The notes under the pieces are model-generated. The model was not told the origin of the DNA and did no database searches. It saw only the letters and a list, made by a program, of their open reading frames with translations. From Candidatus Zixiibacteriota bacterium (lineage in GTDB: Bacteria > Zixibacteria > MSB-5A5 > GN15 > FEB-12), in assembly GCA_034003725.1 (NCBI GenBank), contig JAVEYB010000005.1, positions 38,831 to 70,830 on the forward strand: DNA of 32,000 nt, in the 5' to 3' direction. Each line of letters starts with the position of its first letter. Positions within the stretch are counted from its first letter, which is position 1. Shown here one piece after another: positions 4,006 to 21,745 of this stretch. The position numbers were made by a program, and so were the translations under genes.

Positions 4006-4012
4006 GATGCAT

Positions 4013-6085
4013 TTACTCCGTCACTGCATCTCCGGCATGCAGCTCCTTCTTAATTTCTCCGCAACGAAGCATTGATTCGCCGTAAAAGGAGTTCCAGACG
4101 ATGTCTTCCTGTTGCAACCAGTATGCTCCGGCATTGTCACGGGCCATCGGACAATACGTCAGATAAAACGGCTCATCGGACGCGTGTCCAAACGTATCGT
4201 GCATTTCTATAGTTGCCAATGATAGATTGAAGAAAGCGTCGCGCGCCCCGACAATCGATCCTGCGGAGTTACCGATTTTAGCGGCTCCTGCAAGATTCTC
4301 GGATATGTCCATCCACCGCTCGTGCGCTTTGCCTTCAAACAGGCTCATGTCCACGCCATCGATCAACTTGGCCAGCGTGCCGTATGCTTCTCTTGCCTCG
4401 TCGAGATTGTCATTGGCCAAGGCCATCTGAACGTCGAAGTAAGCGTCGTATACAGGAGCCAGGGCAACCAGAGCTTCTTCACAATCATCCAGTCTCTCAG
4501 CGGTACCAGCTTCGTACGGGCGTTCTTCCGCTGTGGCCATCCTGACCGACCCGGTCTCGCCGTGATCGTGGCCAGCAGCAACGGCACCACCCTGTGGCGA
4601 CATCATACTTGGCTTGGCCTTGATCTGAAGTTCACTGTCAATCTTGAAGGCCCCGTTGGTAACAACCTGTTCTCCCTCTTCCAGCCCGTCTCTTACGACA
4701 TAGTATTCCTGAGCACGAGGACCAAGCGTGATCTGCCGTCCCTCAAAAACGACACCTTCGTCGCTTGGCACCTGCACATAGACAACCGCTCGCTTGCCCG
4801 TAATTAGCGGTGCGGAGGCGGGAATCAGCAATGGAGCTTTCCCCGTTTTCTTGTTTCCTCCTGAGTAGCCAAACGTCTCCGCCGGCACCAGGTCCATACC
4901 ACAGATGTCACATTTGCCTGGGCCATCTTTGACAATCTCCGGGTGCATCGGGCTGATCCATTTCCCCGCAAGCTCCGGCGCTATGACATTGCCCTCGCTA
5001 TCCAAACGAGATTGGACCGAAGCACTGACGAACATCTCCGGTTTAAGCCGCTGGTCGGCGTTACCCACCACCGCGCGAATATTGACCGTCCGTGTTTTGG
5101 GATTTACTACCGGATCGATGAAGCTGATAACGGCATCGAAGACCTCACCCGGAAATGATGGCGATGTGAATGCAATGCGCTGGCCGTATTTCAGCCAAGG
5201 TAGATCTGATTCGTACGCCTCGAGCAGAACCCACAGCCGCTTGAGGTCTGCAATCGTGTAAATACGGGTTCCTGTTGAAACATACATTCCCTCTTTTGCA
5301 TCCTTGTGGACAACTACGCCACCAGCAGGCGCCGTAATCGTAAGATGGTCTGAGGGCACGTTTCCTTGTTCTATGGCGGCAATCTGTGATTCGGAGAGTC
5401 CATAGAGACGCAGTTTCTCGCGGGCCGATTTCAATGTTTGATTCGCCGTTGATTTTAGAACGGTACTATTGGCGGTGCTGAGAGTTGCAACTGCCTTTTT
5501 GGCCTGCAGAAGTTCTTCCTGGGCGGCTACCAACTCTGGAGAGTACATGTGAACCATGTGATCACCCTTTGACACTGTCGCTCCCGTATAATCGACAAAG
5601 AGACTGTCCAGTCGTCCCGCCACCCAAGCAGTAATATACGAAACTCGGGTCTCGTCGTAGTCGAGCTTGCCGACCATGCGGATCGATCGCTCGGCAAACG
5701 CCCTGGTGACCGGAGTCGTTTGAACGCCGGCCAGTTTAACAGCCGTTTCTGACATGCGAATTTGGCTGGGGTCGAGGTCTTCTCCGCCTCCGCTGGTTTC
5801 AATCGGGATCAGATCCATAAAGCATAACGGGCACTTGCCCGGCTTCGGGAGCTGGATCTGCGGATGCATGGAACAAGTCCACATGGTGGGTTCCGATGAT
5901 TCAGCTGATGCGGCAGGAGCGTGCTCATCTGCGCCGCTGTTCGGTTCTGTCGATTCTCCACCACCAAACAAGAGACCGCCGAGGGAGAACGCCACGATAG
6001 CTACAATCAACAGTGAGATGGTTGCTGAGCGTCCTCGCGGGATCAGCCCCCGCCAGTTGTTTCGAGTTGTCTGTTCAGTATTCAT
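4013..6085 (-). CDS. RND periplasmic adaptor (CusB-like membrane fusion protein) with two HMBD metal-binding modules and a DUF3347-like C-terminal domain
   Basis: HMBD-like motifs WTCSMHPQIQLPKPGKCPLCFMDL and SPMHPEIVKDGPGKCDICGMDL. A barrel-sandwich/beta-barrel adaptor core lies between them. The C-terminus carries YLTYCPMA...AYWLQ...FYGESMLRCGE. Only 7 nt separate it from the pump gene. Confidence 0.88.
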   Translation of the reverse strand: MNTEQTTRNNWRGLIPRGRSATISLLIVAIVAFSLGGLLFGGGESTEPNSGADEHAPAASAESSEPTMWTCSMHPQIQLPKPGKCPLCFMDLIPIETSGGGEDLDPSQIRMSETAVKLAGVQTTPVTRAFAERSIRMVGKLDYDETRVSYITAWVAGRLDSLFVDYTGATVSKGDHMVHMYSPELVAAQEELLQAKKAVATLSTANSTVLKSTANQTLKSAREKLRLYGLSESQIAAIEQGNVPSDHLTITAPAGGVVVHKDAKEGMYVSTGTRIYTIADLKRLWVLLEAYESDLPWLKYGQRIAFTSPSFPGEVFDAVISFIDPVVNPKTRTVNIRAVVGNADQRLKPEMFVSASVQSRLDSEGNVIAPELAGKWISPMHPEIVKDGPGKCDICGMDLVPAETFGYSGGNKKTGKAPLLIPASAPLITGKRAVVYVQVPSDEGVVFEGRQITLGPRAQEYYVVRDGLEEGEQVVTNGAFKIDSELQIKAKPSMMSPQGGAVAAGHDHGETGSVRMATAEERPYEAGTAERLDDCEEALVALAPVYDAYFDVQMALANDNLDEAREAYGTLAKLIDGVDMSLFEGKAHERWMDISENLAGAAKIGNSAGSIVGARDAFFNLSLATIEMHDTFGHASDEPFYLTYCPMARDNAGAYWLQQEDIVWNSFYGESMLRCGEIKKELHAGDAVTE

Positions 6086-6124
6086 GACGTTCTTTCCCTC
6101 TTACGATCTCAATGCACAGCAACC

Positions 6125-6628
6125 CTAGTGATTGTGTCCGCTGTGGTCACTGTGATCCATCTTCTTCATGTTTTCTGACTTCGAGTCAGTATCCTCATCA
6201 AGTTTCTTCAAGTAGTTCTCCGGATCTTCGTTGAACGTGCCGCGGCACTTCTTGCAGCAGAACACAACTCGACGGCCTTCGTAGTCTGAGTAGACAGACT
6301 TGTCCTCCAGTATTTCGCCTGAGACGGGACACGTGGATTGAATGTTCTCAAACAGTACGCCTTCTCCGGCAGCTTTCTTGAAAAACTTGTCCGGATCGGC
6401 TTTCAGTTTTTCCGAGCACATCGGGCAGCAGTGATAGACCCGCTGGCCCTGAATATCGGTATAGACTGTCGAATCGATCTTGCCGCCCATTACCGGACAA
6501 TGAGTCTGGTTCTTCAGCTCCTTGGGAGCGTCAGCTTCAGATTTCTTGTCTGCATCCCCAGCTTGCGCGACCGATACAAGTCCAAAGAGCAGGACGAGGG
6601 CTGTGAGTGCATGTTTGAATGAACGCAT
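6125..6628 (-). CDS. secreted tandem YHS/TRASH-domain metal-binding protein with His-rich tail
   Basis: Start moved to MRSFKHALTALVLLFGLVSVAQA (signal peptide), which is preceded by AAGGAG. Two CPV..G......Y.D..G.R...CC..C modules are present. The C-terminal tail is KKMDHSDHSGHNH. Confidence 0.8.
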   Translation of the reverse strand: MRSFKHALTALVLLFGLVSVAQAGDADKKSEADAPKELKNQTHCPVMGGKIDSTVYTDIQGQRVYHCCPMCSEKLKADPDKFFKKAAGEGVLFENIQSTCPVSGEILEDKSVYSDYEGRRVVFCCKKCRGTFNEDPENYLKKLDEDTDSKSENMKKMDHSDHSGHNH

Positions 6629-6650
6629 TTCGTTACTCCTTCCGAGTAGG

Positions 6651-7994
6651 TTATTGTTGCAGGTGTTTGCTGAGTTCTGTTCCGCTGAGCATTTCCAGTT
6701 GGGCGCGCTTCGTGGCAAGTCGGGTCTGTTCTCGCGCCACCGTCAGCTGGAAATCCAGCAATTGTCTCTGAGCATCCAAGACATTTAGAAAATCCGTTTC
6801 GCCTGCCTGATAGGCGGCATAGATGGCGTTCAGGGACTGCTCGGCTTTGGGTACAAGCCCGTCGCGGTACAGGCGAGTCTTGCGCAGAGCATCCGAATAC
6901 TCGAACAGGAGCCGTTCACTCACCGCCACGAGTTGGTTTTCCGAGTCCTTCAAATTGTATTCAGCCGCCCGGCGCCGCGCTTCGGCTTCCTTCTTGCGAG
7001 CACTGTTCTTGCCGAACCAGATTGGCAACGATACGCTGGCGCCAATCATCCAGGGATCCTTGCCGCTTTCCGACATATCCGGATTGATAGCCTCCCCAGT
7101 CTGGATGTAATCGACACCAATGGAGAACGACGGCATCGTTTGCTTGCCGGCCAGCCTCTCCTCGGCTCGTCTACTCTCGATAATCCGGTCAAGTGCTCGG
7201 AGATTCGGATTGTGGCGGGTGATGATGGCGACCACCGAATCTTCGACAAGCGGCACTTCCGCCACAGTAATAGACTGCGGGACGGGAATCTCTACGTCGC
7301 CCGGCAGATTTAGCCAGGCTCTCAATCGGGCGGCCTTGGGCTCAACCTGTTCACGGAGCGTCTGCAAATGGTCTTCGAGCTTTCCAAGTTCTACCTGAGC
7401 CTTGATGACATCGGGATGTTGCTTTAGTCCCACCTTGTATTTGGATTGTGCGACCGATTCCCAAAACTTCAGAAGCTCAAAGTTCTCACTGGTGATTTGG
7501 AGGTCTTGACCTAAAAAGTAGTAGTCATAGAATGCGGACTTTACATCGTAGTACAGCTCATACTTGGCCGCTTCAAATCGCTGATATGATGCCTGCGACA
7601 TTGCAAAGGCCATGTCTTCTTTCGCGCCAAGCGTTCCAAACCACGGAAACGACTGACGCACCCCAAACCGTTGTTCCTGCGGACCGACCCGGGTCTCCAC
7701 GTTCTCGATGAAGTAGGCGTAGTTGAACATCGGATCGGGCAATGCCCCGACATGATCGGATTTCTTCAGGTCCGCGATCCAACGATTATAGGCGGATCGC
7801 AACCGCGGACTCCTTTCCATCGCCACCGCCAAGTAGTCGGCCAGAGTGCTGGTCGAGTCAAAGGACGGAATCAGTTTTGGGATTGTGTCCAGAACAGGAG
7901 CCAGCGAGTCGATAGTCGAGCGCGCTTCAGACTTGTCGGCGGCCTGGACTAAACCTGCCCAGAAGAGAACAAACACCGCCAGTGAGGAGATCAT
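6651..7994 (-). CDS. TolC-family outer-membrane efflux factor (CusC-like)
   Basis: Two-repeat alpha/beta OMF-like sequence, first gene of the efflux operon. Start moved from 8093 to ATG 7994 (MISSLAVFVLFWAGLVQA signal peptide, GAGGA 11 nt upstream). Confidence 0.85.
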   Translation of the reverse strand: MISSLAVFVLFWAGLVQAADKSEARSTIDSLAPVLDTIPKLIPSFDSTSTLADYLAVAMERSPRLRSAYNRWIADLKKSDHVGALPDPMFNYAYFIENVETRVGPQEQRFGVRQSFPWFGTLGAKEDMAFAMSQASYQRFEAAKYELYYDVKSAFYDYYFLGQDLQITSENFELLKFWESVAQSKYKVGLKQHPDVIKAQVELGKLEDHLQTLREQVEPKAARLRAWLNLPGDVEIPVPQSITVAEVPLVEDSVVAIITRHNPNLRALDRIIESRRAEERLAGKQTMPSFSIGVDYIQTGEAINPDMSESGKDPWMIGASVSLPIWFGKNSARKKEAEARRRAAEYNLKDSENQLVAVSERLLFEYSDALRKTRLYRDGLVPKAEQSLNAIYAAYQAGETDFLNVLDAQRQLLDFQLTVAREQTRLATKRAQLEMLSGTELSKHLQQ

Positions 7995-8192
7995 GTATCC
8001 GTAGTTCCTCGTTGCGCATCGGGGCTGGTCAAATAAACGTCTGATTATCATGTTTGGCCTAATCATCCAGTTTCTCAGTCGTGTTGGTTTCATTGAACAA
8101 TGGGGATATCAAATGGCATGCCCAAAAGCACAAGCCACTTAACAACAACGACTTCCGGATTCCGAGATAGGCGAGTGTAGAATTTGTGTGTA

Positions 8193-8220
8193 GAATATTC
8201 TTCAATATCGAATAATATTC
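8193..8220. promoter_or_regulatory. AT-rich palindromes GAATATTC (8193-8200) and GAATAATATTC (8210-8220); candidate enhancer (UAS) for the sigma54 activator
   Basis: Both palindromes read directly. They lie about 115-140 bp upstream of the -24/-12 element at 8334-8349, the usual enhancer distance. GTGTAGAAT direct repeats sit nearby at 8175-8183 and 8188-8196. Confidence 0.3.
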
Positions 8221-8333
8221 TGTATAGCCCGGCAGAAAAGACCGGACCGCTTATCGTTGTTTTCCAGGACTGATACTTGTATTCCAATGTGAATCAATAC
8301 ATTACGGAGATAGTACGCGATGGAGCTGTAGAC

Positions 8334-8349
8334 TGGCATACTCATTGCT
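8334..8349 (+). promoter_or_regulatory. sigma54 (-24/-12) promoter TGGCAT-N5-TTGCT upstream of the kinase/regulator operon
   Basis: TGGCATACTCATTGCT matches the consensus TGGCAC-N5-TTGCW with correct GG-to-GC spacing. It ends 28 nt before ATG 8377, and GAGG lies 9 nt before that ATG. Confidence 0.5.
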
Positions 8350-8376
8350 AAGTAAATCGACAGAGGCAAAAGTTCT

Positions 8377-9438
8377 ATGTGGGAACCTGAAAAACAGACA
8401 ACCAAATTCTATGTCCTTGGCGGTGTAATCGCCTTCACTCTGGCCTTACATTATGGCTTGATAGTGGAGCCATTATCCGGACATGTCCATTGGATTCATG
8501 CGATTCATGGCCGGTTCTGCTATATCCCAATTGTAATTGCCGCTGCCTGGTTTGGGTTGCGTGGCGGCCTTTACGCGGCCTTGTTCATTTCCGTTGCCGT
8601 CCTTCCCTACATTTTTACAACCGGCTTGGAAGTTCACGCGCTTGCAGATGAACTGACCGAAATCATCTTTTACTTCGCGATCGCGTTGCTGTCCGGCGGT
8701 CTCATCGAGCGGGAATTCCGAAGCCGAAAAAAAGCCGAAGATATGAGACTTCAGCTGGAACATTCACACAAAATGTCGCTCGTAGGGCAAATAGCTGCCG
8801 GCATGGCTCATGAGATAAAGAACCCGCTGGCCTCCATTAAAGGGGCAGTCGAAATCCTTTGTGAAGATGGTACTTCTGAGGAAGACAAGGCAGAATTCCA
8901 AGCCATCGTATTGAAAGAAGTGAAACGTATCAACGCCAGTGTGACCGATTTTCTCGAGTTTGCCAGACCCAGTGAAACAACGTTAGCCGTACTTAATCTG
9001 GCCGATGTTGTCCGCTCCAGCCTCAAGCAGATTCAGCCACAGGCTTTGAGGCGAGATATAAGGATCATTAGTCACGTTGAAGATCCTGTAATCGTGATGG
9101 CAGACGAAGAGAGGATTCACCAGGTCATGCTTAATTTGCTGCTCAATGCCGTGGATGCATCCCCAGATGAATCGAATGTGACAATCAGCCTTGGGACCGA
9201 AGAGTCCGATGCGCGGATCACTATTGAAGATTCCGGCAACGGCATAAGTGAGGAGAATGTATCGAAGATCTTCGAGCCGTTCTTCACGACTAAATCAACC
9301 GGTACGGGGCTTGGGCTCGCCATAGCGAAGAGCATAGTTGAACGGCACAAGGGTTGCATTAAACTTGAAAATAATACCAGCCGTGGCGCAAGAGCGGAAA
9401 TTAAACTGCCATTGACGGTAGTCGGAGTACCAGTATGA
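8377..9438 (+). CDS. membrane sensor histidine kinase (HisKA + HATPase_c), ZraS/AtoS-like
   Basis: N-terminal TM segments, H-box MAHEIKNPLASI, and N/G boxes (LLLNAVDAS, DSGNGI, GTGLGLAI). A His cluster HVHWIHAIH lies in the N-terminal membrane region. Confidence 0.9.
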   Translation: MWEPEKQTTKFYVLGGVIAFTLALHYGLIVEPLSGHVHWIHAIHGRFCYIPIVIAAAWFGLRGGLYAALFISVAVLPYIFTTGLEVHALADELTEIIFYFAIALLSGGLIEREFRSRKKAEDMRLQLEHSHKMSLVGQIAAGMAHEIKNPLASIKGAVEILCEDGTSEEDKAEFQAIVLKEVKRINASVTDFLEFARPSETTLAVLNLADVVRSSLKQIQPQALRRDIRIISHVEDPVIVMADEERIHQVMLNLLLNAVDASPDESNVTISLGTEESDARITIEDSGNGISEENVSKIFEPFFTTKSTGTGLGLAIAKSIVERHKGCIKLENNTSRGARAEIKLPLTVVGVPV

Positions 9439-10784
9439 AGATTCTCCTTGCTGACGATGACTCCTCTGTCCGCAGAGTGCTGCAATTCAAGCTTGAGAAA
9501 AAGGGGTTCAAAGTGGATACAGCCGCAGACGGCCTCCAGGCTCTCGAGGCGATTAAGTCAGCACCTTATGACTTGCTGCTATCAGATATCCGCATGCCCA
9601 AAATGGACGGTATCGAGTTATTGAATGAAGCAAAAACCGCCCAGCCCGCCATAAAGGTCATCTTGATCACGGCCCACGCTACCGTTAATCAGGCTGTGCA
9701 GGCGGTCAAGCTTGGTGCATTCGACTACATCACAAAACCGTTTGAGGATGAAGAGCTGTTCGTTGCAATCGAGAAGGCCCTTCAATTCGAAAAACTCGAA
9801 TCAGAGAACAAGAGACTTCGGGGCAAGCTGAAAAAGGTTGAGTCAGACAAGAAACTGATTGGAGCCTCAAAACCATTTCGCCAATTGAAGTCGATGATTC
9901 ACAAGATTGCCGACACCGATGCGACGATTCTGGTCACCGGTGAATCGGGTACTGGGAAAGAAGTGGTAGCGCGAACAATTCATCAGGAGAGTGCCCGCGC
10001 CGAGCAGGAATTCATCGCGGTCAATTGTGCCGCGATTCCGAGGGAGTTGATAGAATCCGAGCTGTTCGGACACACGAAAGGCGCATTCACCGGCGCCGTC
10101 CGGGACAAAAAGGGCAAATTCGAACTTGCCGATAAAGGGACGTTGCTGCTTGATGAGGTGAGCGAATTGGCCATTGACCTACAGGCTAAGCTGCTGCGTG
10201 TTCTCCAGGAAAACGTTATCGAGGCGGTCGGTGCCGAGGTCTTACGACCTATTGATGTGCGACTCATTGCCGCCTCCAACGTTGACCTCCGAGCACGAGT
10301 CCGTTCCGGGAAATTTCGCGAAGACCTGTTTTATCGGCTCAATGTGGTTCCGCTTCAGGTTCCGAGCCTCAGGGAACGCCGCGACGATATCCCCCTGTTG
10401 GCTCGGGAGTTTGTTCTTAAATACAGCGAACAGGACGAAATCAGCCTTGATCCAAAACTTGTGGACAAACTCATGGAGCATGACTGGCCGGGGAATGTCC
10501 GGGAACTTGAGAACCTCATAGCGCGGATGGCGATACTCAGGCGAGGCAACAAACTGACAGCGAAGGATCTTCCGAAGGACTTCGGTCAGTTTGACCCTCG
10601 GGATGAAGGCCATGATAGCGATGGCGAGAATCAGGTAACACTCGAAGAAGCAGAAAGAAGAATGATCGTCGAAGCCTTAGAGAAAACCGGCTGGAACAAG
10701 ACCAAGGCCGCAAAGCGTCTCGATATCCCCCGCCATGTATTGATCTACCGCCTAAAGAAGTTTGAGATCGAGAATCCTGAATGA
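9435..10784 (+). CDS. sigma54-dependent response regulator (REC + AAA+ + Fis-type HTH), NtrC/ZraR-like
   Basis: Receiver domain (LLADDD...DIRMPKMDG), Walker A GESGTGKE, GAFTGA loop (HTKGAFTGA), and a C-terminal HTH KTKAAKRLDIPRHVLIYRLKKF. There is a 4-nt overlap with the kinase gene. Confidence 0.95.
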   Translation: MKILLADDDSSVRRVLQFKLEKKGFKVDTAADGLQALEAIKSAPYDLLLSDIRMPKMDGIELLNEAKTAQPAIKVILITAHATVNQAVQAVKLGAFDYITKPFEDEELFVAIEKALQFEKLESENKRLRGKLKKVESDKKLIGASKPFRQLKSMIHKIADTDATILVTGESGTGKEVVARTIHQESARAEQEFIAVNCAAIPRELIESELFGHTKGAFTGAVRDKKGKFELADKGTLLLDEVSELAIDLQAKLLRVLQENVIEAVGAEVLRPIDVRLIAASNVDLRARVRSGKFREDLFYRLNVVPLQVPSLRERRDDIPLLAREFVLKYSEQDEISLDPKLVDKLMEHDWPGNVRELENLIARMAILRRGNKLTAKDLPKDFGQFDPRDEGHDSDGENQVTLEEAERRMIVEALEKTGWNKTKAAKRLDIPRHVLIYRLKKFEIENPE

Positions 10785-11345: not shown

Positions 11346-12023
11346 TTATACCTCGTTGCCCCAGCTTTTCCAGCCGCGGCGGCGGTTCCGGGCGAACAAC
11401 TCCAGATACCGCATTCCGGGGTACATGTGCTCAATCATCTCGTAAACCGAGTGCGGCTTTTTGCTATGGATGGTTCGTTTCTCACGAAACACCGAACGGA
11501 GCCGTTGCGACGGTGGCGGCACCGGAAACGTGCCCTTGCGGCCGACCAGTAACAATTCGTGTTGATTTCGCCACCAGACGCCAAGCCCCATGATCTCCTT
11601 GTCCCACACAGCATGGCTGCGATACCGAAAGCCCCAAGCTTCCATAACTTCCAGCGCATTACCAAGTATGGCCGGTGGCGTCCACAGATACAGAACCGAA
11701 TCTGCGGCCGAAGGAATCTGTAAGCTCTTTATGTCCTGCAAATCCATAGTCGGGTAGTGCTTCTCTATTTTGGTATTCATGCCCGACCATTTGTAGCGCC
11801 AGGGTGGATCGGCATAGATGATATCGAACCTCCCACGTGGCATGGGAGGTGTGTCTACACCGGCTGCAACATCAATCCGAATCAAGTGCTCAGGGATCGT
11901 GTGCCTATTCCAGATTGGTGCACCTGCTTGATGCAACCAGTGCACCGGTTGTCTGTCCCGATGTACCTCCCGATGACCTGCCGAAAGGCTGTTGTTTCCG
12001 TAAGAGTTAAGACGACTAGACAT
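11346..12023 (-). CDS. MT-A70-family N6-adenine DNA methyltransferase
   Basis: Catalytic DPPW motif in FDIIYADPPWRYKW. Size and the C-terminal HSKKP..VYE.IE pattern are typical of MT-A70. No cognate restriction gene is visible. Confidence 0.85.
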   Translation of the reverse strand: MSSRLNSYGNNSLSAGHREVHRDRQPVHWLHQAGAPIWNRHTIPEHLIRIDVAAGVDTPPMPRGRFDIIYADPPWRYKWSGMNTKIEKHYPTMDLQDIKSLQIPSAADSVLYLWTPPAILGNALEVMEAWGFRYRSHAVWDKEIMGLGVWWRNQHELLLVGRKGTFPVPPPSQRLRSVFREKRTIHSKKPHSVYEMIEHMYPGMRYLELFARNRRRGWKSWGNEV

Positions 12024-12039: not shown

Positions 12040-12501
12040 TTAAGCGCCGGTAGTTCGTCCCCGACGCCTGTGTGGTCTATTAGGTGTTGATTTACTGCGC
12101 CTAGGCGACCGAAGCCTTCGTGTGACTCGTCTTACAGGCCATTCAGGTAGCAGCCGTCGGGCGAGCCAGAACACGAACACCAAAAAGGCAATGGCCAGCA
12201 GTAGTGGCATTAAGCTATCGATGTTGGTCAAAATCGTGATTACAAGTGCGATCCCGAGCACGGCTGTTACAGTTCGCACAATCAAGCCAGGTTGGTTAAA
12301 GAGGCGGAACAACCGATTGACGACGTAGCCGCCGGGAGCCGGTTCGCTGAGCCGTGCGCTGCCGCATAACCCGCAATACTGGCTATCGGGCGGGTTTTCG
12401 TGCCCGCTCTGACAAAGCCTGAGATTCCAGGTACGGCCGCAATAGTGGCACCGTTCCGGCTGACCGGGTGAGATTCTCCTGCACGACGGGCACCAACGCA
12501 T
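12040..12501 (-). CDS. double zinc-ribbon protein with a C-terminal TM helix and a basic tail
   Basis: CPSC...CHYCG...C.SGH...YCGLCG gives four CxxC-type pairs. TM region IVRTVTAVLGIALVITILTNIDSLMPLLLAIAFLVFVFWLA. Arg-rich C-terminus. Confidence 0.6.
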   Translation of the reverse strand: MRWCPSCRRISPGQPERCHYCGRTWNLRLCQSGHENPPDSQYCGLCGSARLSEPAPGGYVVNRLFRLFNQPGLIVRTVTAVLGIALVITILTNIDSLMPLLLAIAFLVFVFWLARRLLPEWPVRRVTRRLRSPRRSKSTPNRPHRRRGRTTGA

Positions 12502-12502
12502 G

Positions 12503-13363
12503 CTAGCTACGCTCCTTTGTGACTTCCTGACGATGCAGTGAAGTGGTCGTTTGTTGCCCCGGCATATTCCAAACGGAGCCGAAAAGCGGGTTTTGTGTGA
12601 CTTCTGTGAGAGTGCCGACCAATACTCGCAGTGAAGGCGACTGTGGCAGTCTTGCGGCGAGACTTGCCGCTCTGCCTGAGGACGTGGTTACAATCAGAAC
12701 CGTCAGCCGACTGAGCTTGAACAGCTTTCGGAAATAGCCGGATGACTGGGCCAATTGATAGAGTTCGAGCTTTCGGCGAAGGCGTCGAAGCGACTCACTG
12801 CCAGTATCCAGTTCCAGACAGAAGTGGTACAGCAGTCGGTTAATGGCGTATCGACCATACCCGTCCGGCCTCGGCATGACTGCCAACGGCACTTTGGCCG
12901 TCTGGCAAGTATTGAGGAAGGCGTATTCGTTAAGCCAGGAGATCCATTCACCTCCGGACGTTTTCAAACAGTGGCCGATTAATGCGGCAGCGAAGTCGCT
13001 GATGCCAAGATCATGCGCCAGCGTGCTGTCGGGCATGCGCCGAATTCGACGTCGGCGGCGCAGTAGCATATCCAGATCATTCTGGCTTATAGAAGCAAGG
13101 TGCCGGATACCTTCTCGGCCGAGATAGTAAATAGCTGGTGCGGACCCCGATTGCACTGGCATGAATCGCCGTTCCACCAAACCGGCATCGAATAATTGCC
13201 TTAGGCGACGATTGATTCGGGTGACACACGGCCAGTCCAGGAGCAATTGCAACTGCTCCCGAGTGAGAAGGAGATGTCGGTCCAGCAAGTTGAGTAGCTC
13301 TCGATCTCGATCACTCAAGACCAGGCGGGGCGCACTTTGCCGTCTGGAGGGGTTGGCTCTCAT
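12503..13363 (-). CDS. replication-relaxation family protein (Replic_Relax-like), copy 1
   Basis: N-terminal wHTH-like LSDRDRELLNLLDRHLLLTREQL...RLRQLFDAGLVER and the conserved LELDTGSE motif. It is a paralog of 19368-20498. Confidence 0.72.
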   Translation of the reverse strand: MRANPSRRQSAPRLVLSDRDRELLNLLDRHLLLTREQLQLLLDWPCVTRINRRLRQLFDAGLVERRFMPVQSGSAPAIYYLGREGIRHLASISQNDLDMLLRRRRRIRRMPDSTLAHDLGISDFAAALIGHCLKTSGGEWISWLNEYAFLNTCQTAKVPLAVMPRPDGYGRYAINRLLYHFCLELDTGSESLRRLRRKLELYQLAQSSGYFRKLFKLSRLTVLIVTTSSGRAASLAARLPQSPSLRVLVGTLTEVTQNPLFGSVWNMPGQQTTTSLHRQEVTKERS

Positions 13364-14862
13364 CAGAATCCCCCTTCGCGATAGCCGGGCGGCAAGTCAT
13401 GATTGCCTCTGTCCGGATCAGCGTCAGACGCCGGTAGCTCGTTTACCTTGGGTGGCTCAGATTTGGGCGGCTCACCAAAACTGGAGTGCTCATCGGAAGA
13501 CGCCGGGGGCCACGTTACACCGCCGACGTTGCGGTACATTTGGCGGACCATTTGCTCTTCGATCCGACTGAGCTTCTCCGGAATGGGGAGATAATCGACT
13601 GATACCTGGCGGGCCGGTTTCCCGCCGACAAAGACCATCGCCTCGCCAACTCCGAGCCGGGCGATACGGCTTCTGAGTAACTCCCGTTCCTCCCCTTGCA
13701 GTTCTGCCGTTACGGTCTTGAGATTCTCGGCGTCCATACGAAAGCAGCAGCGTACCGCGCAGTTGGTGAGAATGGTCGAGCGCATGGCTCGGTCCATGCC
13801 GGTTAGCGACTGGCCGCTCAAGAGGACCGGAATCTTCAGCTTGCGAAACTCGTTTAGGGCCGGAGCAATGATCTCGTGGACTCCGGCCAAGGCGTTGAAT
13901 TCGTCGATTATAAGAGTCGACAGGTGGCGCTCCGGCTCCGGAATGGGCAAGCGCGCGAAAGCTGCCTGTTGCTCGACTGCCAGAATGATACTGGCGACTA
14001 GTTCAGCATCCCGTCCGAGAATGCCCTTATTGAGGTCAAAGAGAACGAGCATGCGATCATTCAGGCATTGGAACAGGTCAAGATCGGACGTATTCGATCC
14101 GAACATGACGCGGAGCTTCGGATCGGCCAGAAAGGTGCTGAGTCGCGGGAGGAAAACCTGCGTGTAGAAGTCGCGCATGGCATCAGAGAGATGAAGCCAG
14201 CGATTGAGAAAGTAATTACGGCAGGCTTCATTGCGAACAGTCTGACAATGGTGATGCAGGAGGGCAGGATTTCTAAGTAGCGGTTCGGTCATTGTCAGCG
14301 GCAAACCATGCTCGGCCATCAAACAGAAGGTGTTGGCTATCAATTCACTTGAGGGCGCACCCCAGGTTGCCTCGGGCCATTGTCGGCGGAGCATAAGTTC
14401 CATGTGCTGCCCGACTCGATGCGGTTTGGCCCATGTCACTTTGGCCAGCGGATTGAATCGAACCAGCGGGGCCTGGTCATCAAAGGAGACGACGAGGATT
14501 CTGCTCAAGACTCGCTTGGGCAGGACGCCGGTGGTGACCAATCGGGCTGCCAGTGAGAGGAACTTGGGAACAGCGTCATGAATGTCGACCATCAGTCCGC
14601 CATAGCCATGCATGAGCAAGTTCACGAGGAAGACGAATATCAATGAAGTCTTCCCGCCACCGGACGAGCCCAGCGAGACAGCGTGGCGCTGCAAATCAGA
14701 CAATTCTATGGCGAACGGCTCAATGACTCGACAATCTGTCAAGGCGCTCGCCTCTCCGATCTGCAATCGTCCCGCGCCCGGACTCGCATTCGACTTCGCC
14801 GATCGGGGTCGAGCCAACAGCCGTTCAAAGAGCGGTATGAGCATCCGTTCTATCGCCGTCAT
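13363..14862 (-). CDS. soluble P-loop ATPase, type IV coupling protein (TraD/TraG/VirD4)-like
   Basis: Walker A GSSGGGKT, Walker B LIIDEFNAL, then RKLKIPVLLSGQSLTGMD, which fits the T4CP pattern (R/K..gi....QS..Q). No N-terminal TM helices. ATGA overlap with E1, and a 1-nt overlap with the next gene. Confidence 0.72.
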   Translation of the reverse strand: MTAIERMLIPLFERLLARPRSAKSNASPGAGRLQIGEASALTDCRVIEPFAIELSDLQRHAVSLGSSGGGKTSLIFVFLVNLLMHGYGGLMVDIHDAVPKFLSLAARLVTTGVLPKRVLSRILVVSFDDQAPLVRFNPLAKVTWAKPHRVGQHMELMLRRQWPEATWGAPSSELIANTFCLMAEHGLPLTMTEPLLRNPALLHHHCQTVRNEACRNYFLNRWLHLSDAMRDFYTQVFLPRLSTFLADPKLRVMFGSNTSDLDLFQCLNDRMLVLFDLNKGILGRDAELVASIILAVEQQAAFARLPIPEPERHLSTLIIDEFNALAGVHEIIAPALNEFRKLKIPVLLSGQSLTGMDRAMRSTILTNCAVRCCFRMDAENLKTVTAELQGEERELLRSRIARLGVGEAMVFVGGKPARQVSVDYLPIPEKLSRIEEQMVRQMYRNVGGVTWPPASSDEHSSFGEPPKSEPPKVNELPASDADPDRGNHDLPPGYREGGF

Positions 14863-15674
14863 GATTGTCCCTCACGATTTTCACCGCACAGCGGACATTC
14901 GGGATTTCTCGGGACAGTGCGGACAAGCTCCGGCATGAAACCGGCCAGGCGAATCTCCCGATAGTTCCAGCCAATCGGGCGGCCCATAACCAGCGAGTCG
15001 ACGGCGAATGATGTCAGAGCAGCGGCCAGCTTGAGCGGATCGATGATGGCCGGTACGCCGGGACAGGGGGTGATGTCAATGTTGATTGCGTGCGGCAGGA
15101 TGCAACCGAAACAGGCTTCGCCAGGACGTTGCACCAAGCAGTAACATTGATCGCCGTCGCGTGATACGGCGCAGAACAGAGCCGGTACGTGCTTTCTCAT
15201 AGCCCATTCCGCGACGGCCCGCCGCGACTGATCGGAGTCTACACCACAAATGACGACAGCGGGAGTAAGATCGAGACCTCGCTCCAGCGCCGCTTCGAAG
15301 AAATAGGGATAGGCATTGATGTGACTGCCCATACAACCGTCTTGCGCCAGATTGCGAGCAAGGCGTTCAGCCTTATTCTTCCACAAGTCTTTGGGTGTAA
15401 ATTGTTGCCGGTTGAGATTGGACAAGTCGACGGTGTCACCGTCAAAACAATGGATTTCTCCATAGCCTTTCTTGACCAATGAGTGAAGTATCTCACCCCC
15501 AAGTCCTCCGCAGCCGACCTGCAGCACGGTCGTGTCCCAGGCAGTTTGCTGATTCCAATTCGGAATGCCTTCCTGGCGAGACCATACCCGGTCGCGCTCG
15601 GTACCCTGATCTCTCAGATCGGGACTTTGAAACGATTTAGACTTCAGTGAGCCGATAGAGCTTTTCCGCCGCAT
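14859..15674 (-). CDS. ThiF/MoeB-type E1-like adenylyltransferase (BilD-like)
   Basis: Rossmann motif VGCGGLGGE, then DGDTVDLSNLNRQ, then two CxxC pairs (CFGC, CPLC) as in the MoeB/ThiF zinc site. Start set at ATG 15674, preceded by AAGGAG plus 6 nt; the track start 15743 lacks an SD. Confidence 0.85.
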   Translation of the reverse strand: MRRKSSIGSLKSKSFQSPDLRDQGTERDRVWSRQEGIPNWNQQTAWDTTVLQVGCGGLGGEILHSLVKKGYGEIHCFDGDTVDLSNLNRQQFTPKDLWKNKAERLARNLAQDGCMGSHINAYPYFFEAALERGLDLTPAVVICGVDSDQSRRAVAEWAMRKHVPALFCAVSRDGDQCYCLVQRPGEACFGCILPHAINIDITPCPGVPAIIDPLKLAAALTSFAVDSLVMGRPIGWNYREIRLAGFMPELVRTVPRNPECPLCGENREGQS

Positions 15675-16326
15675 GGCGAACTCCTTTCCCTGTGACACAA
15701 ACACGAAACGGCATCCGGTGAGAAAAGAATCGGGCGTAGCCATCGCGCGAATAGATGATCCCCACCGTGCGATAGCCAGCCGTTTCCAGCTGCATCTGAT
15801 TGGTCAGATCGATCTGTGACGGCAGATTCGAAGATTTCCCGCGGCCCGGATGCATGTGTAGATACGCCGTCAGCAGACTGCCCCGTTTTTCGAGTTGCGC
15901 CAGGATTCGGCTGGTAGCGGCCGCATTCGAAGTCGCCCGCCCGTACTCGGAGCGGTCGTGCTCAATGTCTACGGTGCGCTCGATAGTGAGCAGGTCATTG
16001 AAAGCAGTGCCGGTTGCGTACCGAATCACTTCGTTCTCATACTGCCGCAGAAGTTCGTACTCATTGTAAAGCAGTTCGGAGCTCACCAAGAAAGTAGGTT
16101 GGTTAGGCAAAGTATCACTGGCCAAAGCTCTGGCATGAGTTAGGCCGTACAGGAGCTCGTGATCTGTCATCAGCCGCCTGAAGATCGCCTCAGCATCGGC
16201 AATGTCTCCTTTGGTCAAGGCAGATCTCAGGGCGGTGAAATCTACCTGCGATTGCATGCCTAGACTTTGACACAATTGCTCCAGACGCTCTACGGTTAGC
16301 TTTCGCAAAAACCGTTCTCGTTCCAT
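15637..16326 (-). CDS. JAB/JAMM (MPN+) metallopeptidase (BilC/Cap3-like)
   Basis: HMHPGRGKSSNLPSQID fits a HxH...S..D JAMM motif with a slightly long spacer. An upstream Glu (ENEVIRYATGT) is present. About 100 aa of helical N-terminal extension. Confidence 0.8.
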   Translation of the reverse strand: MERERFLRKLTVERLEQLCQSLGMQSQVDFTALRSALTKGDIADAEAIFRRLMTDHELLYGLTHARALASDTLPNQPTFLVSSELLYNEYELLRQYENEVIRYATGTAFNDLLTIERTVDIEHDRSEYGRATSNAAATSRILAQLEKRGSLLTAYLHMHPGRGKSSNLPSQIDLTNQMQLETAGYRTVGIIYSRDGYARFFSHRMPFRVCVTGKGVRHAAEKLYRLTEV

Positions 16327-16360
16327 TTTCTATTTCCTTTCGATACAAGTGATTGACCCT

Positions 16361-16675
16361 TTATCCCTCGAATGCCTGGCGCAGGGTTAGTTCTATGCCC
16401 ACGATCCCGTCAACAACCGATCTGCCTCGACGTGAAAAGTGAACTTCGTAAACGTCATCTCCTTTGCGGATGAAACAGGGGCCGTGAGGGCCGGACAGTA
16501 CTTCCTGCGGCGGGTCGTAGATGTAGTATGACCACTTGGTGGCGTGGCGTTTGACGATGCGACCCTGCCACGCTCCGAACGGGCTGACCCGGTACCATCC
16601 GAAAAAACTGTCGCCACGCCGTTGCCACCGGCGATCCATCCACAGCGGCCGGAACCTTCGCGTGATATTGACCAT
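16361..16675 (-). CDS. 104-aa protein, candidate minimal E2-like (BilB-position) enzyme
   Basis: Start set at ATG 16675 (MVNITRRF), preceded by AAAGGAGAA. The sequence has a basic N-terminal helix, three predicted strands (FFGWYRV, AWQGRIV, KWSYYIY), then DPP...GPHGPC. This is loosely reminiscent of the UBC PP...HPN...C layout. It occupies the E2 slot between the Ubl and JAB genes. Confidence 0.4.
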   Translation of the reverse strand: MVNITRRFRPLWMDRRWQRRGDSFFGWYRVSPFGAWQGRIVKRHATKWSYYIYDPPQEVLSGPHGPCFIRKGDDVYEVHFSRRGRSVVDGIVGIELTLRQAFEG

Positions 16676-16706
16676 GGTCTTTTCTCCTTTCTGGTTGGAG
16701 GCGGGT

Positions 16707-16736
16707 GGGAGACGCCGGTTCTGCCCGACGCCTCCC
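16707..16736 (-). promoter_or_regulatory. GC-rich intercistronic hairpin between the Ubl and E2-like genes
   Basis: GGGAGACGCCGG / CCGACGCCTCCC forms a 12-position stem with 2 mismatches and a 6-nt loop. It lies inside the 84-nt Ubl/E2-like spacer. Confidence 0.35.
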
Positions 16737-16759
16737 TGCACCGACTCGGTTCGGTACGC

Positions 16760-17014
16760 TTACCGGCTCCCGCCGTGGTGATGGATAACATGGCCCACGT
16801 CGGTCCGACTCGCGGCATGCAGCTTCTCGCCGTCCTTGATTTCGGCGTAGATGTTTTCCGTATTGCCGAACACGTGAGCGCCGTTGTCCTTGGACAGGAC
16901 AAAGTCCTCCCCGATTCCGAGATCGCGGAAGATGTCCTCGGGTGTGGTACCGGGTTCAATAGTCACGTCGTGACTACGCCCTGAACCGGCGATTACGATT
17001 ACAACTTGCTTCAT
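16760..17014 (-). CDS. 84-aa ubiquitin-like (beta-grasp) protein precursor with a C-terminal GG-SR tail (BilA-like)
   Basis: AAGGAG lies 7 nt before the ATG. The strand/helix pattern (VVIVIAG, DVTIEPG, TPEDIFRDLGI, DFVLSKD, IYAEIKDGEKLHA) is compatible with a beta-grasp fold. A flexible tail ends HHHGGSR. It is the first gene before E2-like/JAB/E1. Confidence 0.62.
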   Translation of the reverse strand: MKQVVIVIAGSGRSHDVTIEPGTTPEDIFRDLGIGEDFVLSKDNGAHVFGNTENIYAEIKDGEKLHAASRTDVGHVIHHHGGSR

Positions 17015-17124: not shown

Positions 17125-18594
17125 TTAGAGGCTTGGAATCGTGTAACCGCGACCTCGTTTGGTCACGATGATATGCTTGACGGGGAGTTTTTTGCGGATT
17201 TCGGCGATGAAATAATGAGCCCTACGAGGTACGCCTTCCAGCGATTCGGCGAACTCCTCATACAGTTTGATTATGTCAGTGTTTGACACGAAATGACCCT
17301 CGCGCTCGACCAATAGGTTGAAAATGGCAAGCTGGAGGTCGGATAGTTGGCCGATGGAGAGTGTTTCCTCACCGTAAATCTCACCAGAAATCAGGTCAAT
17401 TCGGACGCCGTGACGCGAAAATACCGTAACGGCCGACTTCTTAAGTGAAGTGATAAAATCCCTGAGATCACGTTTCAGGGTCTGGGCCAACAGGCCAGAA
17501 TGTGGGGAGTCATCAACTCCGGACTTTGATAGGTCCCGAATTCGGCGTGACAGTTCAGCCGCCTGACCGCTTGGTCCGGTTTTGTTGAGCGATCCGAAGG
17601 CATGAGAAAACTGATCAAGCGTTTGACTTAGGATAGTGCTGTGCAGTAGGAAATCGGGTGCGATGAATTCGATAGCTCTCTTCAAGTGATGAATGGCCTG
17701 TTTGTAATCCCCAAGACCATTATAGGCCGTACCATAACCGAGCGGAACGAAAGGAAAAAGGGATTGCGATTTGAATCGCTTCGTCTCCTTCTCGGCAAAC
17801 CTGAACCACTCCAACGCTCTCTTGAAATCGCGCTTGTGAAGAAGCAAATTACCGACGCGCTTGAGAATGTCTGCCGACTTGGTCGAGACGTCGTGTTTCT
17901 CGGAAGCGCTCAGTGCGGCGTCATACATCCTCTCAGCCTTGTCGAAGTCGCCGACAGACCTGTAAATATCACCCTGACATAACAGACTTTCAACGAATAG
18001 TTCGAGTTGCTCCATTGAGGCCGATTGTACGTGCTCCAACAGATCCAGAGCCTTCTCATAGTTTCCCATAGCTCCATAGACCTGCCCTTGCTGAAGCATG
18101 GTCTCCAACCGCGATCGGGAGTTATCAGCATCGTCTGAGATGTGAAGTGCCTGGCGAAGATATACCAGCGCTTGATTGTGATTTTGTCTCAAGCTGTCTA
18201 TAGACGCAAGTTGGACCAGAGCGTCTGCTTCCAAAGCCGCCAGACCGTGATCACGAGCAATTACCAGCGCCTCGGCGGTTTGCTCTTCAGCTTTGGCGTA
18301 TTCCAGGTACTGCAGAAACAGGTAGCCGGATTCGATCAGCGCGTTCGCATACGTTTCCTGTGGGCACCTGTCTAGTGCCATTTTGACGAATTTGGTTGCC
18401 AGGCGCTTGGCCTTGGTCGCCTCACCTGTAGACATCAATGCTTTCGTCTGAAGAATGAGACATTCGACCTGACGTGGGAAGTCCTTTGTCCTTTGAGCTT
18501 CCTTGAGAGCCTTCTCTGAAGCTTTAAATGATGCGCCAAACTCGTCCTGCAAATAGAGGCGTTCGGCTTTGGTAATTAGTTCGCTATCTTTCAT
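17125..18594 (-). CDS. TPR-repeat protein with a C-terminal OmpR/PhoB-type winged-helix DNA-binding domain
   Basis: About 400 aa of TPR-like repeats (A..Y...G.Y..A periodicity). C-terminus LSDLQLAIFNLLVEREGHFVSNTDII...RRAHYFIAEIRKKLP...IVTKRGRGYTI matches the trans_reg_C pattern. Confidence 0.8.
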   Translation of the reverse strand: MKDSELITKAERLYLQDEFGASFKASEKALKEAQRTKDFPRQVECLILQTKALMSTGEATKAKRLATKFVKMALDRCPQETYANALIESGYLFLQYLEYAKAEEQTAEALVIARDHGLAALEADALVQLASIDSLRQNHNQALVYLRQALHISDDADNSRSRLETMLQQGQVYGAMGNYEKALDLLEHVQSASMEQLELFVESLLCQGDIYRSVGDFDKAERMYDAALSASEKHDVSTKSADILKRVGNLLLHKRDFKRALEWFRFAEKETKRFKSQSLFPFVPLGYGTAYNGLGDYKQAIHHLKRAIEFIAPDFLLHSTILSQTLDQFSHAFGSLNKTGPSGQAAELSRRIRDLSKSGVDDSPHSGLLAQTLKRDLRDFITSLKKSAVTVFSRHGVRIDLISGEIYGEETLSIGQLSDLQLAIFNLLVEREGHFVSNTDIIKLYEEFAESLEGVPRRAHYFIAEIRKKLPVKHIIVTKRGRGYTIPSL

Positions 18595-18659
18595 TAAGCA
18601 AGTACGGCATCAAAGTGACTCATGGTGATCTGAATAAGTGGCATTTCCCAGCACTCCTG

Positions 18660-19136
18660 CTAAGAGTTTTCACTGTTCGCCACAAAGGCACCTGCTAGAA
18701 AGAGCCCAATACCCCAGAGTATTCCTGTGGCAATATTCTTTTCATGCTTCTTACGCAATAAGAATTGCTGCATCCCACGGATCGATGACTCTGGTCTTCG
18801 ATAATCTAGGAGAATATACTCTCTCCCGTCTAACATAGAAAGCTTAGACGGATCAAAGCCGGGCAAGGCTATAGGTATTATTAGTTTCTCCTTTCCCTCT
18901 GCATAGCCGATTTCCTGCTGGACATAGGTAGATTGTTGACTGGCAGGAGAAAGTAGCACAATCATTCCGTCTGATCGATCAATTTCGGCTTTGACTTTTT
19001 CGGAAATATGCCGACCAGGCTGTACGTCGTGCTCGCAAAGGTAGACTTCCACTTCAATCTGTCGCGCACTATCCACAATGTAATTTGCCACTTGAATGTC
19101 CGCACTACTGTGACTGAGAAACACTCGATAAGACAT
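18660..19136 (-). CDS. small TIR-domain protein with a C-terminal TM anchor
   Basis: VFLSHSSAD start, and a conserved Glu context STYVQQEIGYAEG typical of bacterial TIR_2 domains. C-terminal hydrophobic helix ATGILWGIGLFLAGAFVA. Start set at ATG 19136 (AAGGAG plus 5 nt) rather than GTG 19142. Confidence 0.85.
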   Translation of the reverse strand: MSYRVFLSHSSADIQVANYIVDSARQIEVEVYLCEHDVQPGRHISEKVKAEIDRSDGMIVLLSPASQQSTYVQQEIGYAEGKEKLIIPIALPGFDPSKLSMLDGREYILLDYRRPESSIRGMQQFLLRKKHEKNIATGILWGIGLFLAGAFVANSENS

Positions 19137-19169
19137 GTTCACTCCTTTGATAACATGAATTTGATGGTT

Positions 19170-19199
19170 GAATATACATCTGAAGATGTTGAATACGCA
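19170..19199 (-). promoter_or_regulatory. candidate sigma70 promoter for the TIR/TPR-wHTH genes (TTGCGT-18-TATATT)
   Basis: Read on the minus strand: -35 at 19199-19194 and -10 at 19175-19170, about 35 nt upstream of the TIR start codon. Confidence 0.35.
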
Positions 19200-19367
19200 A
19201 GACTTCCGGCTCCACCATTCCGCGCCGCAGCGGACGGCGGCAACGCGGGGTGACGGCCCGGCTGCGACCAGGGCGGATCGCTATCACCCGTAACGCGCCC
19301 TGCTCCTACGTAACAGCTAATGGTCACTCGGTGAGGAAGGCGGAATGTATGAAGCCGGAGTTCCCGG

Positions 19368-21199: not shown

Positions 21200-21745
21200 T
21201 CATCGGGCAAGCCTCCGTTTCTTCCTTCGGGGAGAATCAGTCCCAGTGGGAGGATGCAGTTGCAGGAATGCGACTCCACAAGCGATGGCATCAAACATGT
21301 TGCCGAAATAGCGCTCCTGACTGCCGGTCCGGCCTCTCAAATAATAGCGTGTCTCCGGAAAGCGCGACATGACGGATTTCGCGGCATCGAGCTTTCGGGC
21401 GTTGCCGTTGCCGGTTACAATCCGCCGGATTGTTCTGGCATTCAGCCCGTGGCAGGGTACGCGGTGAGACTTACTCAATGATTCGATCTTTTGGATCACT
21501 CGAATTAGCCGATAGTTGGACGTAGCCTGGGAGAATTGGTTACGCTCGAAAACAAGGACGGATGGCTGTTTTTCGACAAGCATTCGGGTGAGGATGTCTT
21601 CTACGTGCTCAAGAATGATCGGCAATCCTCCCTGACGAATCGACTTGATGCCGAAATCAACCAGTTTGGTAGAATTGAAGGCGGCATAGCCGAGGTATTG
21701 TGTTCCGGGATCTATGGCGAGCAGGCTATTTCGAGTCTCGCGCAT
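21200..21745 (-). CDS. RuvC-like Holliday-junction resolvase (element-encoded)
   Basis: LLAIDPGTQYLGYA (first catalytic Asp), VLVFERNQF (Glu), FDAIACGVAF (Asp). These are colinear with the E. coli RuvC motifs IDPG...E...DA.A.A. 181 aa with a basic tail. Confidence 0.7.
   Translation of the reverse strand: MRETRNSLLAIDPGTQYLGYAAFNSTKLVDFGIKSIRQGGLPIILEHVEDILTRMLVEKQPSVLVFERNQFSQATSNYRLIRVIQKIESLSKSHRVPCHGLNARTIRRIVTGNGNARKLDAAKSVMSRFPETRYYLRGRTGSQERYFGNMFDAIACGVAFLQLHPPTGTDSPRRKKRRLAR

Follow-up and report, generated by a model that had tools for sequence, protein, structure and literature searches.

A candidate ubiquitin-like conjugation cassette carried by an integrative element of Candidatus Zixiibacteriota

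The window analysed here is a stretch of 32,000 nucleotides from a Candidatus Zixiibacteriota bacterium (GenBank assembly GCA_034003725.1, contig JAVEYB010000005.1, positions 38,831 to 70,830 of the forward strand; coordinates below are those of the window unless another locus is named). Four genes at 14859-17014 raise the question of whether this organism carries a ubiquitin-like protein (Ubl) conjugation pathway and, if so, whether that pathway is one already known. A first-pass annotation had read them, in order, as a small beta-grasp protein, a small Cys-containing protein, a JAMM peptidase and a ThiF-type E1, and had placed them among the bacterial ISG15-like (Bil) systems. Operons of E1, E2, JAB and Ubl genes (type II CBASS, Bil and Bub) are recently established prokaryotic relatives of eukaryotic ubiquitination, and each of these families has yielded unexpected chemistry. 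In this report, we propose that the four genes are a self-contained cassette for Ubl activation and conjugation, that their lineage falls outside the definitions of Bil, Bub, CBASS and PRTRC, and that they occupy a variable slot of an integrative element. We put the probability of this reading at roughly 55%.

A Ubl, a JAMM enzyme and an E1 that are inherited together

The map of open reading frames (ORFs) bears out the number and order of the genes. They are co-directional, on the minus strand, and run Ubl, X, JAB, E1, where X denotes the small Cys-containing protein:

16760..17014, minus strand: Ubl precursor, 84 aa
16361..16675, minus strand: X (the “E2-like” protein of the first-pass annotation), 104 aa, with a single Cys, C67
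15637..16326, minus strand: JAB (JAMM/MPN+ metallopeptidase), 229 aa
14859..15674, minus strand: E1-like adenylating enzyme, 271 aa, a single ThiF-type domain

We judged the ribosome-binding sites of all four genes to be good; X and E1 both start with ATG, with GAAAGGAG and GGAAAGGAG, respectively, just before it. The motifs quoted by the first-pass annotation (GCGGLGG, DLSNLNRQ, CFGC and CPLC in the E1, the JAB motif, and a GG near the Ubl C-terminus) are all in the translations.

The fold of the Ubl was read from an AlphaFold2 (AF2) model of P0135, a naturally occurring fusion of Ubl and X that shares 55% identity with the window protein in its Ubl domain. The model has a pLDDT of 94-98 in both domains, and the PDB matches that Foldseek found for its N-terminal domain are ubiquitin, SUMO, NEDD8, TtuB and BilA (8tyx_A), with TMt values of 0.6-0.78. 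On this homologue model, the beta-grasp fold that had been surmised for the 84-aa protein is confirmed, and the assignment of the protein as a Ubl holds; its single sequence matched nothing in scans of Pfam, NCBIfam and PADLOC. The domain comprises residues 1-74 (16793-17014) and ends in a conserved ...TDVG. Indeed, a near-invariant ...VG closes the Ubl domain in an alignment of 24 fusion proteins and four stand-alone orthologues. The sequence past this Gly varies: a non-conserved 10-aa tail, HVIHHHGGSR, in the window (16763-16792), TPSHVRAS in locus L006, NVTFKL in locus L011, and, in the fusions, a long linker. Orthologues do not keep the GG at residues 81-82, which is therefore incidental. 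Thus, the GG singled out earlier does exist (HHHGGSR), but it does not stand as the processing site, since the conserved glycine is G74; from the alignment, cleavage is expected after Gly74.

The assignment of JAB as a JAMM/MPN+ metallopeptidase holds, as predicted from its E...HxH...S-x-x-D zinc site. The motif residues E99, H157-x-H159 (15850-15858), S170 and D173 are invariant in 11 orthologues, and the segment HMHPGRGKSSNLPSQID is present in the translation. Prok-JAB (PF14464) is matched by nine of the 11 orthologues (best E 1.9e-4), and a profile of the family finds BRCC36 (5.8e-4), RPN11 (6e-3) and, weakly, BilC (0.063) in the PDB. The single sequence has no match in Pfam, NCBIfam or PADLOC and only a weak one, to BRCC36, in the PDB. 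JAB also carries an N-terminal helical extension of about 75 aa. Within it, residues 8-38 (16213-16305) give a weak match to the Ku70 SAP motif (E=0.44) that may be due to chance.

The E1 matches PF00899 with an E-value of 6.2e-24. It contains the motifs VGCGGLGGE (the Gly-rich loop is residues 54-59), DLSNLNRQ, CFGC and CPLC, along with K101 and D146. Conservation over 100 family members extends to the ATP-site residues, to the four zinc cysteines C188, C191, C260 and C263 (96-100%) and to a Cys in the crossover loop, C204 (95%; codon 15063-15065). The closest relatives in the PDB are the NEDD8, ubiquitin and SUMO E1s, with E-values from 2e-13 (UBA3, the best) to 2e-8, followed by ThiF/MoeB at 5e-7; the stronger of these matches span only the Rossmann half of the protein. 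The idea that the E1 is a compact, reduced variant can be set aside: at 271 aa in a family of 260-280 aa, it is not reduced, and has the ordinary size of homodimeric E1-like enzymes (ThiF/MoeB/UbaA).

All curated NCBIfam models score this E1 far under their cut-offs: ThiF (TIGR02356), 64.5 against 275; the MoeB models, 47-50 against 266-449; UbaA (NF047750), 42.4 against 450; PRTRC ThiF (TIGR03736), 39.7 against 144.75; and likewise the MoeZ, TcdA and Cap2-type models. PADLOC E1-E2 models match only the core. Grouping of the E1 with the sulfur-carrier ThiF/MoeB clades would have told against the first-pass annotation; every ThiF/MoeB equivalog cut-off is failed.

The same proteins raise the alternative of a sulfur-carrier pathway of the ThiS/MoaD/QbsE/CysO/TtuB type. 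The JAMM enzyme would trim the Ubl and the E1 would adenylate it; a thiocarboxylate formed on the Ubl would then supply the sulfur for a modification, of a nucleic acid or a small molecule, that the element makes, and X would relay a persulfide through its Cys. The E1 is like sulfur-carrier E1s in its ThiF/MoeB size, in its Cys4 zinc site and in having a cysteine at the position of ThiF C184 and MoeB C187; one of the best structural matches to the Ubl is TtuB; and some loci have Fer4_12 or DndB neighbours. A JAMM enzyme, a C-terminally extended Ubl and an E1 also make up the QbsCDE and CysO-Mec layouts, and the extended Ubl, JAMM trimming and E1 adenylation of QbsCDE and CysO-Mec-MoeZ are what we would predict for the cassette. 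Nevertheless, we hold this pathway to be rather improbable. The equivalog scores for ThiF, MoeB, MoeZ and TcdA fall far short. The E1 carries an SNLNRQ-F signature, and its matches to UBA3, UBA1 and SAE2 score higher than those to ThiF/MoeB. In contrast to QbsCDE and CysO-Mec-MoeZ, there is no rhodanese domain on the E1, and no rhodanese domain, cysteine desulfurase or biosynthetic enzyme is conserved with the cassette. Further, the conserved terminus of the Ubl is a single Gly, not the GG of ThiS/MoaD-type carriers.

The proteins are inherited together. A genome scan with the E1 alignment gave 46 informative loci (34-46% identity), in which JAB, X and Ubl were scored by single-sequence phmmer. 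JAB was present in 45, X in 39 and Ubl in 35, and several of the misses lie at contig ends; in 33 loci with more distant ThiF genes, JAB, X and Ubl were found in none. This set of four genes, in unchanged order, is found in about 46 genome loci spread over many phyla and in every X-family context sampled, which is far beyond chance. The E1 family forms a cluster of its own, linked to X. All members of the cassette come from uncultured organisms. The source metagenome-assembled genomes belong to Zixibacteria, WOR-3, Thermodesulfobacteriota, Ignavibacteria, Anaerolineales, Planctomycetota, Acidobacteriota (many), Victivallales, Omnitrophota and others, with one labelled Methanosarcinaceae. A tblastn search with JAB found no relatives among PLSDB plasmids or INPHARED phages, and IMG/VR held only one related locus.

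The archaeal label belongs to GCA_052361145.1 (loci L013 and L021), in which the element reads integrase, HTH_3, Replic_Relax, TPR, cassette, ATPase, Replic_Relax, HTH_17. This represents either transfer between domains of life or a binning error.

The small protein X and a possible conjugation cascade

The central question for the conjugation reading is whether X acts as an E2. A word-indexed search found only three to four close relatives for X and JAB (three for X). Recovering the X family took an exhaustive profile search, which yields 589 cluster representatives at E<1e-3, 212 of them at <1e-10. In the family alignment, W17, G26, G38 and C67 (codon 16475-16477) are invariant, and conservation is 90% or higher at P55, P56, H64, F68, H79, G90, I91 and E95. 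Ubiquitin matches swamped the Foldseek search with the two-domain fusion; hence, X was modelled alone, with a pLDDT of 91.5. In its predicted topology, a short helix is followed by a four-strand meander, the PP motif, H64-x-x-C67 and a beta-hairpin that ends at H79; a long helix comes last. X thus has the conserved Cys after a beta-meander and PP motif that is typical of E2s. In the non-canonical bacterial E2s, a nucleophile is paired with a nearby His (C138/H151 in BilB and S333/H335 in BubB, as described in two preprints from the Corbett laboratory); the counterparts in X are H64, C67 and H79.

Genomic context lends support to an E2-like role for X, because Ubl-X fusions parallel those of BubAB and because an E2-JAB-E1 set occupies the slot of a sister element (described below). 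Ubl and X are encoded separately in the window, and 24 of 149 X-family representatives (~16%) are Ubl-linker-X fusions.

A few family members are tandem X-X proteins. P0151, P0159 and P0241 have an N-terminal hydrophobic segment, putatively transmembrane, followed by two X domains, and the His and Cys are retained in the second copy only. In the one case checked, in locus L176 (1170-2060), the tandem gene lies between a gene for an 81-aa Ubl and genes for JAB and ThiF proteins. Such a pair, with one copy of active type, may be likened to a UEV/E2 pair.

Beyond the resemblance of the E1 and the Ubl to sulfur-carrier proteins, a number of results weigh against the conjugation reading, and most concern X. 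The model of X has a beta-hairpin after the Cys and is without the N-terminal helix of the UBC fold. Foldseek found nothing significant for it in the PDB or BFVD (the latter search being empty). The top match, the Serratia CBASS E2 8hsb_B (TMq 0.54, E=0.55), is non-significant; it is the sole PDB match with a TMq above 0.5, and, judged by E-value, the fit of X to type III secretion chaperones or to the MotA C-terminal domain is about as good. No family was shared in a Pfam scan of 118 X-family members, the single X sequence matched no Pfam, NCBIfam or PADLOC model, and sequence and profile searches of the PDB returned nothing relevant. Alignments (hhalign) of the X profile with four eukaryotic E2s, with E. 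aridi BilB (taken from its paper; probability 0.4%) and with the E2 of the sister element were all non-significant. Finally, the cassette comes with no recognised target, E3 or effector. The 104-aa protein, read as E2-like in the first-pass annotation, thus shows no detectable relation to BilB, to eukaryotic E2s or to any model in these collections, and we regard it as no more than a candidate minimal E2-like carrier.

An E2-independent system in the manner of the archaeal SAMP/UbaA/JAMM1 proteins would dispense with such a carrier, the E1 by itself both activating and conjugating the Ubl. X would then be a target, adaptor, regulator or Ubl-binding partner. SAMPylation by the Haloferax SAMP and UbaA proteins needs no E2, X is without demonstrable E2 homology, and the E1 is of UbaA size, with a full-length match to the UbaA model (5.3e-11). 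The parts also correspond in kind: a small beta-grasp modifier, an E1 of about 270 aa that is MoeB-like and has a zinc site, and a JAMM protease that (by prediction in our case) both processes and deconjugates. However, SAMPs end in GG and their genes are neither in one operon nor on mobile elements, whereas the cassette Ubl has a single conserved Gly. Further, an invariant Cys with flanking His residues, kept in only one copy of the tandem X-X proteins, points to catalysis over passive binding, the Ubl-X fusions parallel the Ubl-E2 fusion BubAB, and a true E2 stands in the same position in the sister element. We therefore regard conjugation without an E2 as unlikely.

For the conjugation reading with X as carrier, we infer the following cascade. 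The JAMM peptidase would trim the 84-aa precursor just past Gly74, and the same cut would free the Ubl from X in the fusions. Next, the 271-aa E1, which is probably homodimeric in the manner of ThiF, MoeB or UBA5, would adenylate Gly74, and the Ubl would move onto the crossover-loop Cys204 as a thioester. It would then pass to Cys67 of X, a minimal, non-canonical E2-like carrier that may be aided by His64 and His79, and from there to lysines of target proteins. The JAMM enzyme may also reverse the modification. Most likely, the cassette would serve to defend against phage or rival elements, or would help the element to establish itself.

If X is indeed a carrier, it would be the smallest E2-like module known, and would bear on how a conjugation cascade arises from a ThiS/ThiF-like pair. 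We tentatively go a step further, with less than even confidence: the cassette may represent a further, unclassified lineage of prokaryotic Ubl conjugation that uses thioester chemistry and in which the partner of the ThiF-sized E1 is a minimal carrier of new fold, be it an E2 reduced to the extreme or a separate invention. It would serve integrative elements of uncultured bacteria as an interchangeable module that tags host, phage or the element's own transfer proteins.

Comparison with known Ubl systems

By analogy, the cassette appears to work most like Bil and Bub. The gene order of bilA-B-C-D is Ubl, E2, JAB, E1 (10.1101/2023.09.26.559546), and the cassette likewise has four separate genes ordered Ubl, small Cys protein, JAMM, E1. 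The precursor Ubl requires C-terminal trimming in Bil, as we predict for the cassette, and in both BilB (C138/H151) and X (C67/H79) a conserved His lies about 12-13 residues downstream of the Cys.

These likenesses might suggest that the cassette is a true but reduced member of the Bil anti-phage family, as BilA among the structural matches of the Ubl, BilC in the profile search with JAB and a nearby TIR-domain gene might also do. The differences make such membership, which the first-pass annotation had favoured, highly unlikely. BilD is an IAD-AAD-CYS protein of about 535 aa, whereas the cassette E1 has one adenylation domain, lacks the IAD and CYS domains and carries its Cys in a short crossover loop. 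In a BLASTP comparison with E. aridi BilD, it aligns over the Rossmann core only (E1 residues 53-184; 142 Rossmann residues, 23% identity). X is without detectable homology to BilB (Prok-E2/CEHH type), no Bil-type model of Pfam or PADLOC (Prok-E2, Ub-Mut7C) was matched, and the E1 family is a separate cluster always linked to X. Further, the cassette sits in a mobile-element operon.

Type I Bub (BubAB, BubCD and BubE; formerly “6E.1”) is similar in other respects. Its JAB domain cuts the Ubl-E2 fusion BubAB right after a conserved Gly (10.1101/2024.11.21.623953). The cassette shares with it a minimal single-domain E1, a JAMM enzyme encoded beside that E1, and a Ubl whose end is a single conserved Gly with additional residues after it; in part of the cassette family the Ubl is fused to the next small protein, which implies JAMM cleavage after the Gly. 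In contrast, no DUF6527 protein (the serine protease BubE) is encoded among the operon genes or neighbours scanned, X is not recognisably related to BubB or UBC, and JAB and E1 are separate, whereas Bub systems fuse JAB to E1 (type I) or E2 to E1 (type II). In Bub, which forms oxyesters, the crossover loop of the E1 carries a Tyr and the E2 has a Ser. Given the conserved C204 of the E1 and the invariant C67 of X, thioester rather than oxyester chemistry is expected for the cassette.

The resemblance to CBASS, both type II (Cap2/Cap3) and E2-only, lies in E1, E2 and JAB chemistry within a mobile defence module, and in the weak top structural match of X to the Serratia CBASS E2. The cassette differs in having a dedicated Ubl and no E2-E1 fusion. 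The first-pass annotation was right to exclude CBASS: there is no CD-NTase among the window ORFs scanned. The PRTRC systems of plasmids and integrative and conjugative elements likewise place a ThiF-family protein and a small Ubl-like protein on mobile elements, and some cassette loci have ParB or methyltransferase neighbours. However, NCBIfam models detected none of the PRTRC A-E proteins, and the PRTRC ThiF model stays under its cut-off, as noted above.

Thus, an E1 of the simplest kind (ThiF-sized, with a crossover-loop Cys), a dedicated Ubl and a Cys domain of about 100 aa without a profile link to E2s form a combination not seen together in CBASS, Bil or Bub. No description of the cassette was found in the open-access papers and bioRxiv literature searched, the coverage of which is incomplete.

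The cassette in its integrative element

The cassette makes up the 5' portion of an operon that extends beyond it and belongs to an integrative mobile element, a setting that the first-pass annotation missed. The genes around it are as follows:

17125..18594, minus strand: TPR protein with a C-terminal OmpR-type winged helix, 489 aa (TPR_12 2.8e-19, Trans_reg_C 3.2e-5)
13363..14862, minus strand: P-loop ATPase of TraD/TrwB/HerA-FtsK type, 499 aa (TraG-D_C 5.8e-4, PADLOC mad8 2.2e-13)
12503..13363, minus strand: replication-relaxation (Replic_Relax) protein, same operon, 286 aa (PF13814, E 3.2e-26)
12040..12501, minus strand: double-zinc-ribbon protein with a hydrophobic segment, same operon, 153 aa (PF12773, E 4.1e-4)
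11346..12023, minus strand: MT-A70 family methyltransferase, 225 aa (PF05063, E 2.1e-23)

The ATG of the ATPase gene overlaps the E1 stop codon (ATGA), which places the ATPase in the same operon as the cassette. Orthologues of this ATPase match DUF87, TrwB_AAD_bind and TraG-D_C; the window protein itself is a better match to PADLOC mad8, of the MADS defence system, than to conjugative coupling-protein models. The double-zinc-ribbon gene is kept together with the ATPase and Replic_Relax genes across genome loci, and the MT-A70 gene is the final member of the co-directional block. The TPR/winged-helix gene lies directly upstream of the cassette, as it also does in L001 (a relative about 90% identical) and in L013/L021, and its product is a candidate regulator of the operon. 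Farther upstream are a TIR-domain gene and a second Replic_Relax gene. A scan for sigma-70 promoters and terminators gave results at background level. A sigma-54-like motif read by eye upstream of the Ubl gene was rejected for its wrong spacing.

Within the cassette, the 3' end of JAB and the start of E1 overlap by 38 nt in different reading frames (15637-15674). An overlap of the same length occurs in distant orthologues (L006, 6001-6038; L011, 5678-5715), and translational coupling of the two genes is likely. A frameshift signal is not evident in the overlap. A programmed frameshift that would fuse JAB to E1 was considered and dropped as unnecessary, because E1 has its own strong ribosome-binding site.

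Across genome loci, the surroundings of the cassette include TraD/HerA/FtsK-type ATPases, Replic_Relax genes, HTH_17 excisionase-like genes, and tyrosine or large serine recombinases. The ATPase is present in 17 of the 46 loci, with Replic_Relax alongside in 16 of those 17. MT-A70 stands beside the cassette in 10 of the 46 and is fused to ParB_N in L012. Other neighbours, in L178 (8080-12306) and L012 (7831-8931), are D12 and MT-A70 methylases, ParB_N/ParB-CE, NT5C and HD/thymidylate kinase genes, types that are typical of the early or leading regions of mobile elements.

Is the cassette, then, a universal core of the ATPase/Replic_Relax backbone? The reverse test led us to reject this idea: of the 47 ATPase-family loci for which enough DNA upstream is available, only two contain the cassette, and the backbone family is much larger than the cassette family. 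Since the slot otherwise holds different cargo, the cassette is an exchangeable accessory module. One alternative cargo is in L097, which shares the TPR regulator and the ATPase/Replic_Relax/zinc-ribbon backbone. Its slot (2189-5902; also in L101) holds a different cassette, in the order 72-aa ORF, 150-aa UBC-type E2, Prok-JAB (167 aa), ThiF (368 aa), SH3_3 protein and Peptidase_M23. The top 20 PDB matches of the 150-aa protein are all E2s (25 of 26 overall), and 7wlh_B is matched at 8.9e-4 with the catalytic Cys aligned; no obvious Ubl was recognised in this cassette. The swappable slot and this sister E2-JAB-E1 set are a concrete, testable link between Ubl tagging and the biology of mobile elements. 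If the more far-reaching reading of a further lineage is true, Ubl conjugation would belong among the tools that mobile elements use for establishment or counter-defence, and not only among host anti-phage defences.

In L098 (2271-6001), another backbone relative, the same slot holds genes for an NYN-domain nuclease, an N6/N4 DNA methylase and a VWA-domain protein, and this content resembles a defence or anti-defence module. The TIR gene of the window (18660-19142; TIR_2 3.1e-17, with ThsB-like matches) lies between the second Replic_Relax gene and the TPR regulator. In L001 (7011-8098, against 18571-19203 in the window), an unrelated 279-aa gene without a Pfam match stands in its place on the opposite strand, which is further evidence of cargo turnover. 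Within the element, this site appears to be a hotspot for cargo or defence genes.

To the right of the element are a RuvC-like protein (21200-21745, at the Pfam threshold) and a tyrosine recombinase of 238 aa, either a gene or a fragment of one (29753-30469); no tRNA gene was found in the window. On the left side, homology to L001 ends exactly at the end of the MT-A70 gene (position 11350). Beyond that edge, the window (202-10784) encodes a sigma-54 two-component pair and a CusCBA-like heavy-metal efflux operon (OEP, HlyD_D23 with HMBD, ACR_tran and a YHS protein), and L001 has an HTH_17 gene and PmbA/TldD at the same place.

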